Below, in pieces: positions 57,201 through 62,954 of a stretch of 64,000 bases of DNA. This DNA is from Chrysomallon squamiferum (lineage: Eukaryota > Animalia > Mollusca), in the NCBI GenBank assembly GCA_012295275.1, contig CM022675.1:6696001-6760000 (forward strand), read 5' to 3'. A program made the translations under genes and the position numbers. Each line of letters opens with the position of its first letter. Position 1 is the stretch's first letter. The notes beneath the pieces are model-generated. The model saw nothing but the letters and a program-made list of their open reading frames with translations. It did no database searches and had not been told where the DNA came from.

Positions 57201-58486
57201 TGAGAAAAGGATGAAGAAAAAAAAATTAGAAAGAAATTCAATAAATTGATTATATATATATATATATATATATAAAATGTGTGTGTCTTCCTCTAACATT
57301 CATTAATATATGTGTGTGTGTATATAATATATATGTGGGTGGGGGGTGAATGGGTGTGTTTTTTTAATATTCATTAATTTATATATATATATATATATAT
57401 ATATATTATTGTCTAACAATGATTTTATACATTTTATAAAAAGACTGAGGAGATTCAGTGAGTGTGATACAAAACAATAGATTACTTGATGCATATTGTT
57501 ATAAATAAATTTTTGGCTACCTTTGATTTGTTATGTTACTTATAACAAAATGTATATTAATAGAAATTTTTCAAGGTTTTGTTGGGCTGTGTTTTTTTTT
57601 TTATTGTCTTTATGAGGTGTTGGCTAATATAATATGATATATACTTTTAAAATAATTTTATGTCAAAATTATGTGAATTTAGAAACAAAAAAACAGTGAT
57701 TTCTGAATAAGGAGGAACAAAGAGAGAGAGAGAGAGAGAGAGAGAGAGAGAGAGAGAGAGAGAGAGAGAGAGAGAGAGAGAGAGAGAGAGAGAGATTCTG
57801 ACAGGTAACTAACTATTTTGCTTATTCTAATATCACAAGCTCTCAGGTTGTAAGAGTTGGGGAAAACGAACAAACTTACCAACTGTTTCTCCTATCATGA
57901 ATGAAACACATAAAATAACAACAGTTATCATCTGATTTCTGGCCAGCATGTCAGGGCTCACGGGCGGGCCGCTGTGACAGTGTATAGGTCGCTTCATGAC
58001 AGCCTGGTTCGAATTCAAGTCTTGATGGTTAATTTCTCCATTTTCGTTCATACCGCCACTTCGCTCGTCGTATCTACGTCTGCTCTCCGCTCCGCCCCGA
58101 AAGTTATTGCCGATACCGATTCGCATTTTGTGCTGCTGCGATAAGTCGGAATTATTAACCAGTTCCAGCCTCGTGCCATTCATAGCCACGGACTGGTTGT
58201 CGATTGTGCCACAGACGAGCTCACTCTCTCCGACGGGTTTGCCAGCCCAACCTGTTGACGTTGACAGCACGCGTTTTGGGTAGTCGTGGTTTTCCGTTTC
58301 GCTTGTCGGTGGTTCATCCAGAAGTGATTGGTGAATGCCTAGAAGTTCGTCGTCGGAATCATCGAGCAACGGTTGTTCAGGGCTCGCAGATTTGTATCTA
58401 CAATCTTCCTGCCATCGGGAAACATCTGGCGCAGGGTTTCTCTTGTCCGTCAATAATCCACTATTAACATTTGACATGGCAGCCAT
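33078..58486 (-). CDS. SLC30A2: Zinc transporter, CDF/SLC30 family, ZnT2/3/8-like; 7 coding exons (58486-57880, 38083-37937, 36903-36747, 35355-35064, 34523-34412, 34006-33872, 33226-33078), 1599 nt, 532 aa
   Basis: All seven exons have GT-AG boundaries and join in frame (phases 1,1,2,0,1,1). The product has an N-terminal HCH, TM2 'TDVVHLGSD', 'SFGYHRAEVLGAL', a His-rich loop 'GHGHSHSHS', TM5 'NVRAAFIHVLGD', 'ADPICTFLFS', 'VHSLHVWSLT', 'HTTIQVE' and a C-terminal CxxC (CPEC). The symbol is the nearest vertebrate paralogue; the gene is probably co-orthologous to ZnT2/3/8. Confidence 0.95.
33872..34006 (-). CDS. SLC30A2: ZnT exon 6 (C-terminal cytosolic domain)
   Basis: aacag|GVPKDIDYPHIRNALMSLDGVKSVHSLHVWSLTIDRNSMTVHLAV|GTCTGT; 135 nt. 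Confidence 0.95.
34412..34523 (-). CDS. SLC30A2: ZnT exon 5 (TM6)
   Basis: ttctag|PEDKYRLADPICTFLFSVLVLITTVTVLRDALRVLLE|GTAAAA; 112 nt. Confidence 0.95.
35064..35355 (-). CDS. SLC30A2: ZnT exon 4 (His-rich loop, TM5 HxxxD)
   Basis: ttcag|MGIVLHSERCCG...GHGHSHSHS...NINVRAAFIHVLGDIIQSIGVLVAALIIKLK|GTGAGT; 292 nt. Confidence 0.96.
35438..35760. repeat. ~93-bp tandem repeat x ~3.5 in ZnT intron 3
   Basis: Recurring 'tacttaaacacaaaac..gctataa..tttttaatgaaactaccatattaacaaactggattaaaa'. Confidence 0.8.
36747..36903 (-). CDS. SLC30A2: ZnT exon 3 (TM3-TM4)
   Basis: cacag|EVLGALFSVFLIWLVSGILCYIAVERIVHEHYKNVKPNEMLITACLGVCFNV|GTAAGT; 157 nt. Confidence 0.95.
36904..37760. repeat. Compound triplet microsatellite with a higher-order unit (x3) in ZnT intron 2
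   Basis: '(TAT)n ttctattattattatttctgtataatagc (AAT)n ...(AGT)n' at ~36985, ~37185 and ~37370. Confidence 0.85.
37937..38083 (-). CDS. SLC30A2: ZnT exon 2 (TM2, HxxxD of site A)
   Basis: tttcag|...GGVLSNSLALFTDVVHLGSDLISFIISLLAIYLSTKPASQKMSFGYHRA|GTGAGT; 147 nt; its reading frame is not in the ORF track. Confidence 0.95.
47000..47192. repeat. Minisatellite with embedded (GT)n, x ~4
   Basis: 'taaaaagataatggtacaaaacttcaaa(gt)n' repeated. Confidence 0.8.
49930..50130 (-). mobile_element. Old SINE-like dispersed repeat fragment (related copies at ~9965-10120 + and ~42955-43150 +)
   Basis: Shared core: 'taaaagatcatttttgatgctaat' (9991), 'aaggatgaatttcttgctgctaaa' (42980) and reverse complement 'taaaagatctttgttgctaat' (~49998). 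The SINE assignment comes from recalled resemblance to gastropod repeats and is unverified. Confidence 0.45.
52866..53470 (+). repeat. Dispersed ~600-bp repeat, copy 1 (ZnT intron 1)
   Basis: Two blocks match 63338-63880: 'ttttatctgcagaa...aacattttttataatgata..aattggatgctaaatgttt' and 'gcagttaattcaactgaat.attttctgtttcattagttg.ttttatcttaaat...ctgtttcagcat.aaacaattacc'. They are separated by (AAT)n/(GT)n. Confidence 0.85.
57880..58486 (-). CDS. SLC30A2: ZnT exon 1 (long cytosolic N-terminus, HCH motif, TM1)
   Basis: aaaATGG start at 58486; MAAMSNVNSG...PIHCHSGPP...VILCVSFMIGETV; donor G|GTAAGT at 57880/57879. Confidence 0.9.
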
Positions 58487-58499
58487 TTTTAATTCTTGT

Positions 58500-58507
58500 T
58501 CACGTGA
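58500..58507. promoter_or_regulatory. Palindromic E-box TCACGTGA (CLEAR core, MiT/TFE-type) starting 14 nt upstream of the ZnT start codon
   Basis: Exact TCACGTGA at 58500-58507; function inferred. Confidence 0.4.
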
Positions 58508-58759
58508 TGTACCACAAGATATTTTTAGCGGCAAAAAGTTTTCTTTAAATTACCTTTGTAACAATAAGAAAAAAAACAACAAAAATAATAGGTAAATAAA
58601 TAAAACACGTTATTCAGCGAAAGCATTTATTAATTTATTATTAAGTGGCAATAATAATTTCAAATATTTATAGCATCTTAAACAATCTTCTGTATATAAT
58701 ACTTCATACTAATTAACGATTATAACAGAACCAACGTTTGTTTATAATGAAGTATGATA

Positions 58760-61609: not shown

Positions 61610-61756
61610 AAATGACGTCACACTGCATACCATTAATGCAACGTGAATGGTCCGCCATCTTGAGTTTCACGTTTTTATCATTGCACACGGCACGTAGTTT
61701 ATCAAGGCTTTGGAGTTACTCAGTGTACCTTTGCGGGACTTTTAATTTGATGTCAG
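61610..61756 (+). promoter_or_regulatory. Probable core promoter / non-coding first exon of the ZIP gene
   Basis: CRE TGACGTCA 61613-61620; YY1-type CCGCCATCTT 61652-61661; MRE TGCACACGG 61682-61690; donor CAG|GTGAAT at 61756/61757 that could pair with the acceptor tttcacAG at 61998-61999 just before the ATG; locally CpG-retaining. Confidence 0.55.
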
Positions 61757-62000
61757 GTGAATTAACCGAAACTGAGTGTTTGCACTTAGTAGAAGCTTAG
61801 ATATTTCGAAAGTAATTCACGTTTTTAGTAAAAATCAAGAAAATATTATCGGTTTTCAATGTCAAAGCCTTTTGTTTGTGTCAGAATGCTTTTATTTAGA
61901 GTCGCAACGTGAATCCGATTCGAGTTCTAAATTCGAGTTTTAACAGCCAATTTTGTATCATTTTTTTGTATGAAGTAAATATTTGTTTTTATTTCACAGC

Positions 62001-62954
62001 ATGGCTTTCAGCCACTGCAAGATGTGCCTTACAACAAAATTTCCGTTGTTCTGTTTGTTGCTTTGCGTGCCCTCGTGGATATTTGGATCCAGAGGCAATG
62101 TAGCTCAAGCCTCTAATCAAACGAAACCAGAAAATAATACGATGTTCGGAGAATTAGGTTCGATTCCGCAGACGTATCACGATCATGATGATTTTCAAAT
62201 TAAAGAAAGTACAGTGTCTATAGCTCGAGAAAAAGGAAAATATTTTGCTTCGTTATTGTTCGCTAAATATGGCAGTGATAATCAAACATTACATCAAAAT
62301 GAACTCGTTCAACTTTTTCATCATTTGGTTCTGGCAGTCGTTGAAGATAAAGAAGTGGATGCTGAAACTTCGGACAATGAATACACAGGTGATGATAAAA
62401 TTCATAAACGTTTTCAAGTGGTCCCTGATCATAATACATTAGAATCACATGAACAAGAGCAGCATGATGATGATGATGATGGTGTTTTACATGCTGATAG
62501 AAACATTACATTTGTTAATACTACCAGATCAACTGAAAAACGTAATATTGATAGTAACTCTGATATAAATGACTTAAAAAACGACAAAGAAATTTCACTG
62601 CATCATGCACATTACAACAAAAATGGGACTTTCAGTGAAAACCAGACTATACATGTTTTAGACCATGAAAACAATTTAAATTTAACAAATGCTCCAACTG
62701 TGATACCTCAAAATCTTACTGTTGTGAAACAAGATAGTAAAAATTTTAATTCGTCTCAGAAACAGTCATTTGGGAAAAAAAGAAAAGCCAAAGGTGAACG
62801 TCGATCCAAAAAAGGTCGCAAACAGAAGAAAAATAAGAAAAATAAAGAAAATGTTGACAAAAGGAAGAAAAATAAAGAAAATAGTGACAAATCAAAGAAA
62901 AGAATTACAAGAGGATTGTCAAAACAACAAAATAATTACCATGTAGATCGTGGG
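62001..62954 (+). CDS. SLC39A10: First coding exon (318 aa) of a LIV-1 subfamily ZIP zinc transporter, ZIP6/ZIP10/foi-like ectodomain; the gene continues beyond the window
   Basis: ATG at 62001; signal peptide (FPLFCLLLCVPSWIFG); 'YFASLLFAKYGSDNQTLHQNELVQLFHHL' resembles the ZIP6/10 N-terminal motif (F..LF..YG....L....L..L...L); about 10 N-x-S/T sequons; His/acidic patches; basic stretch ending RITR; phase-0 donor GGG|GTAAGC at 62954/62955. The TM domain and HEXPHE motif are outside the window, so the family call rests on the ectodomain alone. Confidence 0.75.

Follow-up and report, generated by a model that had tools for sequence, protein, structure and literature searches.

A divergent ZnT2-like and ZIP10-like gene pair in Chrysomallon squamiferum, with a candidate metal response element in the ZIP first exon

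Are two zinc transporter genes of different families that lie head to head in a snail genome joined by a common control, or are they simply neighbours? In animals, the ZnT and ZIP families are generally viewed as unlinked and separately controlled, and the question is raised by a stretch of 64,000 nucleotides of Chrysomallon squamiferum (GenBank assembly GCA_012295275.1, contig CM022675.1, positions 6,696,001 to 6,760,000 of the forward strand), hereafter the window. Here a ZnT gene starts from an ATG at 58486 on the minus strand and a ZIP gene from an ATG at 62001 on the plus strand; the two are divergent with 3514 bp between them, exactly as the original prediction had placed them when it proposed a zinc-homeostasis switch in which a shared interval would raise ZnT and lower ZIP under high zinc. 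The pair is composed of a ZIP10-like importer and a ZnT2-like, likely vesicular storage transporter, both expressed and divergently oriented. What is new here is an old-looking pairing of these genes in molluscs and a candidate metal response element (MRE) in the non-coding first exon of the ZIP gene, an exon that is itself conserved in a related organism. The prediction knew of no described conserved divergent ZnT-ZIP pair in animals, and the literature that we searched, with most subscription aquaculture journals outside its scope, describes neither such a gene pair nor an exonic ZIP10 MRE in molluscs.

The two transporter genes

The ZnT gene is intact, with seven coding exons over 25 kb forming an open frame of 532 amino acids, and its six introns are all GT-AG. 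Its exons and the ZIP coding exon of the window are as follows (TM, transmembrane segment):

57880..58486, minus strand: ZnT coding exon 1, with the long N-terminus, the HCH motif and TM1; covered by RNA contigs
37937..38083, minus strand: ZnT exon 2, with TM2 and the H218-D222 metal site; matched by the loose end of the X8 contig
36747..36903, minus strand: ZnT exon 3, from the gene model, with GT-AG introns
35064..35355, minus strand: ZnT exon 4, with the His-rich loop and TM5 (H380-D384); Pfam Cation_efflux match
34412..34523, minus strand: ZnT exon 5, with TM6
33872..34006, minus strand: ZnT exon 6, cytosolic dimerisation domain, called on the orthologue P0001
33078..33226, minus strand: ZnT exon 7 to the stop codon, with the C-terminal CxxC
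62000..62954, plus strand: ZIP exon 2, with the ATG at 62001, a signal peptide, a His/Asp-rich ectodomain and a basic cluster; the gene continues beyond the window

Splicing of both genes is seen in RNA contigs of runs X8 and X9. ZnT exon 1 is covered from 57879 to 58503 in X8 and from 57879 to 58478 in X9, and the X8 contig continues into exon 2 sequence.

Transporters of the ZnT2/3/4/8 group are marked by an N-terminal HCH motif, by H-xxx-D in TM2 and TM5 and by a C-terminal CxxC. The window protein, which has six hydrophobic segments, carries HCH at 169, HLGSD at 218, HVLGD at 380 and CPEC at 524. The orthologue P0001, 63% identical over its full length, contains both the cation-efflux transmembrane domain and the cytosolic dimerisation domain according to Pfam, and the best named relative is a zinc transporter 2-like protein of Gigantopelta aegis, a closely related snail (70% identical over exon 4, 63% over the full length). 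Compared with human transporters, P0001 gives an E value of 2e-78 to ZnT3 and of 6e-29 to ZnT1, and scores 239-268 bits to ZnT3/8/4 versus 99-111 bits to ZnT1/10. The sequence thus assigns the window ZnT to the vesicular ZnT2/3/4/8 subfamily, outside the ZnT1 exporter type, and membership of this subfamily makes a vesicular location and Zn2+/H+ antiport likely. The protein resembles the mammalian vesicular Zn2+/H+ antiporters SLC30A2/A3/A4/A8 (PDB 9jj1, 6xpe, 9jj3) in its HCH motif, H-D/H-D transport site, His-rich loop and C-terminal CxxC; it differs from them in a long N-terminal extension and in belonging to a mollusc-specific orthologue clade. A tree of 58 rows groups it with proteins of chitons, gastropods and bivalves in a single clade with a support of 99, separate from a second molluscan ZnT2-like paralogue.

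The ZIP coding exon, from 62001 to 62954, encodes 318 amino acids with a hydrophobic N-terminus and 17 His residues. Pfam gave no match to this exon alone, and a word-based search with it as query found none among 1356 candidates. A profile scan with the exon returned four matches among 1.84 billion representatives, the best of which, P0121, is a complete ZIP10-like protein of G. aegis in which Pfam finds the Zip domain; the top local match among three G. aegis copies is the ZIP10-like P0152 (E 2e-44). The RNA contigs of X8 and X9 extend 30 letters beyond 62954, which read as CLTIKQILEA, and the same junction and motif are present in the homologues; from these contigs and from the alignment to the G. 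aegis copies, the ectodomain continues into a conserved stretch that begins with Cys. Because the window ends before the transmembrane exons, the LIV-1 signature comes from the homologues only: a CPALL-like motif, HN..D in TM4 and HEXPHEXGD in TM5 are found in all three G. aegis proteins, on one of which Pfam Zip was run. By homology, the plus-strand gene is a ZIP6/10-like member of the LIV-1 subfamily and likely a zinc importer, with uptake at the plasma membrane as predicted for this subfamily. The molluscan ZIP6/10 proteins form one clade with lineage-specific duplicates (FastTree, 80 ZIP rows, support 97), within which the copies linked to ZnT do not resolve into one subclade.

Both family assignments of the original prediction hold, the ZnT on its 532-residue frame, Pfam Cation_efflux and motifs, the ZIP on P0121, P0152 and the CLTIKQILEA junction. 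The two families are unrelated, so that tandem duplication, already dismissed there, is ruled out as the origin of the pair. The supposed opposition of the two genes needs to be reworded: both are transporters, but the ZnT belongs by subfamily with vesicular storage transporters and not with exporters of the ZnT1 type, and the pair therefore stands for uptake and storage as much as for import versus export.

Several features of the ZIP proteins were observed along the way. The contig proteins P0122-P0124 suggest similar ZIP copies in relatives. At the end of the ectodomain exon (62775-62920) a Lys/Arg-rich cluster is followed by an R-x-x-R site, common to the G. aegis copies; a site of this type occurs in the ectodomain of 11 of the 19 mollusc ZIPs checked, and furin-type processing is a possible reading of the motif. 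An Asp repeat of the window gene's ectodomain, at 62457-62463, is length-polymorphic between runs (9 nt shorter in X5, 6 nt longer in X8).

Apart from the pair the window is gene-sparse, as had been claimed, with no Pfam match in any of 45 further candidate open reading frames (ORFs). One THAP-domain ORF (22472-23008, minus strand, Pfam E 3e-10), with weak ORFs nearby at 20488-21970, lies downstream of ZnT and is probably either the remnant of a transposon or a small gene.

The ZIP first exon and the interval between the genes

The following features lie between the two coding regions:

61643..61756, plus strand: ZIP10-like non-coding exon 1, from an X8 contig; its 5' end is the end of the RNA contig, the start site being unmapped
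61682..61693, plus strand: candidate MRE TGCACACGGCAC, 39 nt within the transcribed ZIP exon 1
61621..61760, plus strand: non-coding conserved block; 14 differing letters and one gap over 140 nt in X10 record 1
60076..61260, no strand: microsatellite field, from repeat analysis
60026..60035, no strand: a weak pair of MRE cores, one on each strand and overlapping, within sequence that resembles a CA repeat; unmatched by long contigs of organism B
58763-58829 and 59020-59203, no strand: a dispersed repeat present twice, as copies or fragments (88% direct repeat), on which many divergent RNA contigs pile up

The first exon of ZIP is documented by an X8 contig that spans 61643-61753 and joins the coding exon over a 243-nt GT-AG intron, with a concordant loose end in X9. 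Against the MRE consensus TGCRCNCGGCCC given in PMC4333406, the candidate TGCACACGGCAC matches at 11 of 12 bases. It has four of the five consensus flank bases, as compared with two at most in the other 23 of the 24 cores of the window, and when the 114-nt exon was shuffled 2000 times its match was never equalled, the bare core appearing in 9% of the shuffles. The exon and the element fall in a block about 90% identical in a related organism, B, in which the ZIP coding exon mostly stays below the 80% threshold; the organism B contig that carries the block also joins to 62228 in the coding exon, and no difference is listed from 61677 to 61696, a span that includes the MRE. Such conservation is good evidence, from sequence comparison, that the block corresponds to a promoter and first exon. 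A conserved upstream ORF as the reason for the conservation was rejected because a 1-nt insertion breaks its frame in organism B.

Other motifs were recorded in this region. A CRE-like TGACGTCA lies at 61613-61620, just before the block, and a YY1-like CCGCCATCTT at 61652-61661, near the 5' end of exon 1; a change in organism B at 61659 hits a degenerate position of the latter. The 5' untranslated region contains upstream ATGs at 61647 (a 16-codon frame across the MRE) and at 61750 (a 36-codon, out-of-frame ORF that overlaps the main ATG), the second of which could dampen ZIP translation.

The rest of the interval has a different character. The dispersed repeat is likely a mobile element. The core pair at 60026-60035, with flank matches of 0 and 2 of 5 and a repeat-like context, was downgraded as a candidate, and no strong MRE of its own was found near the ZnT ATG. 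In organism B the matches over 57800-60070 outside TM1 are short AT-rich stretches only, while the ZIP first-exon block is matched well. With its microsatellites and dispersed repeat, and with no conserved element found on the ZnT side over 57800-60070, the interval does not resemble a compact bidirectional promoter. The start sites of a classical bidirectional promoter lie less than about 1 kb apart; here the RNA contig ends of the two genes are 3139 bp apart, and since ZIP transcription starts at or before 61643, the transcribed units are separated by 3139 bp or less. An unseen upstream ZnT exon could shorten the distance; none is seen in the RNA contigs aligned over 57800-60070, where missing cover would not by itself rule out an exon. 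This layout would fit a core promoter for each gene, the two lying about 3 kb from each other, and not a single bidirectional promoter. The proposal of a common regulatory interval is thus upheld in part: an exonic MRE is present that would lower ZIP in high zinc, but the 3.5 kb are not one conserved shared promoter.

Linkage of the pair in other molluscs

Linkage in other species was followed by two proxies, presence on the same record (identical record length) and distance between RefSeq numbers, orientation being known from the window only; neighbouring genes tend to receive close RefSeq numbers. The matches listed were 120 of 251 for ZnT and 120 of 2399 for ZIP. They include a ZnT orthologue in 35 named mollusc species, of which 29 also have a listed ZIP6/10, and the six without were dropped.

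Among these matches, 18 of the 29 species have the ZnT orthologue on one record with a ZIP6/10, and 11 do not. Three of the shared records are small (1.29 Mb in Haliotis rubra, 1.18 Mb in Ylistrum and 0.88 Mb in Saccostrea cucullata), each of them a 3-5% chance event on a 55-Mb chromosome. Moreover, RefSeq accessions are one to three numbers apart in five of 15 comparable species, namely two scallops, two oysters and one abalone (Pecten 1, Argopecten 1, S. echinata 1, S. cucullata 2, H. rubra 3). The chance of five in 15 within four numbers is about 3e-6 among 500 numbers, and 0.007 in a conservative count at the level of lineages. H. rufescens was left out of this count, its two numbers coming from different series. 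In G. aegis, ZnT and the three ZIP10-like paralogues (P0121, P0125 and P0152, one clade) lie on one chromosome, a linkage at the level of a shared chromosome only.

Several observations count against a general adjacency. In the other ten of the 15 species the accessions are from 90 to more than 2000 apart or belong to different chromosomes; in Mya and Biomphalaria the two genes fall on separate chromosome-scale records, and nine fragmented assemblies have them on different scaffolds. Locus tags or GenBank numbers are also far apart in Dreissena (at least 2448 tags), Littorina (274) and Bradybaena (65). A wide gap between accessions was not read as evidence in either direction, given the Ylistrum and Dreissena controls; in Ylistrum, both genes lie on one 1.18-Mb scaffold and yet have accessions 310 apart.

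The record lengths and accession numbers taken together make a ZnT-ZIP neighbourhood likely in abalone, scallops and oysters. The simplest reading is that the pair was likely ancestral before the gastropod-bivalve split and was later duplicated or broken in some lineages. The adjacency that the original prediction expected in related genomes is in this way borne out by proxy, by shared records and close accessions among the matches listed.

Scanning metagenomes with the ZnT alignment returned 79 loci, none of high-identity mollusc type and none with a ZIP match, which is uninformative on synteny. In the hemichordate Glandiceps, a ZnT2-like P0098 and a ZIP14-like P0233 share one 21-Mb record with accessions 360 apart; neither groups with the mollusc clades, and they are probably unrelated to the mollusc pair.

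Proposed control of the pair and its alternatives

A conserved divergent zinc-handling pair that includes a ZIP is known in fungi, the PRA1-ZRT1 type, composed of a zincophore and an importer that are both induced by zinc starvation; it differs from the snail pair in having no opposing transporter. Vertebrate SLC39A10 is not known to have a ZnT neighbour.

The nearest precedents are mouse Zip10 and two head-to-head gene pairs of C. elegans, each under a single enhancer. Mouse Zip10 (Slc39a10) has a single MRE at +17 in its first untranslated exon, where bound MTF-1 represses the gene, and its authors propose that MTF-1 blocks polymerase elongation (PMC3124522). The snail ZIP10-like gene is similar in having one candidate MRE shortly downstream of its 5' end in a non-coding first exon; it differs in standing head to head with a ZnT. 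A mutagenesis oligonucleotide for mouse Zip10 in the same source keeps, after the introduced site, ACGGCAC, which equals bases 6-12 of the snail element; the comparison is with the seven bases that this oligonucleotide leaves unmutated. In C. elegans, mtl-2/T08G5.1 and cdr-1/F35E8.10 are each controlled by one HZA enhancer (PMC12239621), and here too a single zinc-sensor element lies between the start codons of divergently oriented animal genes; in the account given there, the factor is HIZR-1 and not MTF-1, both genes are induced and in neither case is a ZnT paired with a ZIP. For the ZnT side, ZnT2 genes are described as MRE-dependent in human (PMC10030689) and fish (PMC9321221). Human SLC30A2 depends on a TGCACAC MRE according to the former, and differs in this from the snail gene, near whose ATG no strong MRE was found. 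Fish zip10 has MREs at other positions, from zebrafish work as cited in PMC9321221. Oysters possess MTF-1, and the MTF-1 target reported for them is ZnT1 (PMC5601910).

Our best single explanation, to which we give somewhat less than an even chance, is that of a likely ancestral divergent pair in which MTF-1 at the exonic MRE represses ZIP and possibly raises ZnT. High zinc would bring MTF-1 to the MRE of the ZIP first exon and shut off the importer, by a block of RNA polymerase II elongation if the mouse case is a guide; by this analogy, the lowering of the importer through the exonic MRE is the probable part. From the same interval MTF-1 may also raise ZnT, and reciprocal control of ZnT is plausible. 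The strongest candidate site for it is again the exonic MRE, 3196 bp from the ZnT ATG, and the weakest step is that this one site, about 3.2 kb upstream, would activate ZnT and so keep the pair together. It seems improbable that a single MTF-1 site acts as a two-way switch blocking ZIP10 and activating ZnT2, in a locus kept since the snail-bivalve ancestor and with the exonic Zip10 roadblock element common by descent to molluscs and mammals.

Some results weigh against shared reciprocal control. MRE cores are common in the window (24 against 12 expected), and an intact 12-mer would be met in organism B by chance with a probability of about 0.3 at 10% divergence, by our own arithmetic. No convincing conserved element on the ZnT side appears in organism B over 57800-60070, and the ZnT contigs end 17 nt before the ATG (X8) or just inside it (X9). 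Moreover, the reported MTF-1 target of oysters is a ZnT other than that of the pair.

Next in rank, and somewhat less probable than shared reciprocal control, are old neighbours under independent control: the exonic MRE would repress ZIP as in vertebrates, ZnT would use its own promoter, and linkage would simply persist from an ancestral gene order, mollusc genomes being slow to rearrange. The roughly 3 kb of microsatellites and dispersed repeat between the genes and the missing ZnT-side block agree with this, as do the splitting or loosening of the pair in mussels, heterodont clams, Littorina and heterobranch snails and the local nature of the mouse mechanism, which requires no partner gene. 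Such neighbours would nevertheless have met by a chance adjacency of two unrelated zinc transporter families, which we roughly estimate at about 1%, and the close-accession signal persists in three lineages besides that of this snail. Co-expression from a common tissue enhancer, with ZIP importing zinc and ZnT packing it into granules of the same cells in one accumulation pathway, is unlikely. It is favoured by the vesicular type of the ZnT, seen in the E values of P0001 to ZnT3 and ZnT1, by the presence of spliced contigs of both genes in both RNA runs, and by the single C. elegans element that, as described in PMC12239621, drives two head-to-head genes the same way. The sole strong element of the snail locus, however, sits downstream of the ZIP start, which is the repressive position in mouse, and contigs are no guide to the level of expression or to the cell type; for this ranking of ZnT versus ZIP, contig depths were not used.

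The least probable reading, which we consider very unlikely, is a local coincidence, with a non-functional MRE motif and an accession pattern that does not reflect adjacency. Accession order is indeed not strictly positional, as Ylistrum illustrates, and the gene coordinates used are those of this species. Against it stand the low probabilities of the five close accessions at either level of counting and the three scaffolds of less than 1.3 Mb, which set a physical bound; product names, moreover, differ between the cases, so that sorting by name does not explain the close numbers. Shared reciprocal control thus ranks above independent control, co-expression and coincidence, in that order.

For molluscs, a conserved neighbour pair would provide a defined locus for the study of zinc uptake and storage in metal-accumulating animals. 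The 7-bp core of the MRE would offer a sharp distinction between a reciprocal switch, independent control and co-expression. The exonic MRE also suggests that MTF-1 repression of Zip10, confined to vertebrates in the literature searched, may extend to molluscs.

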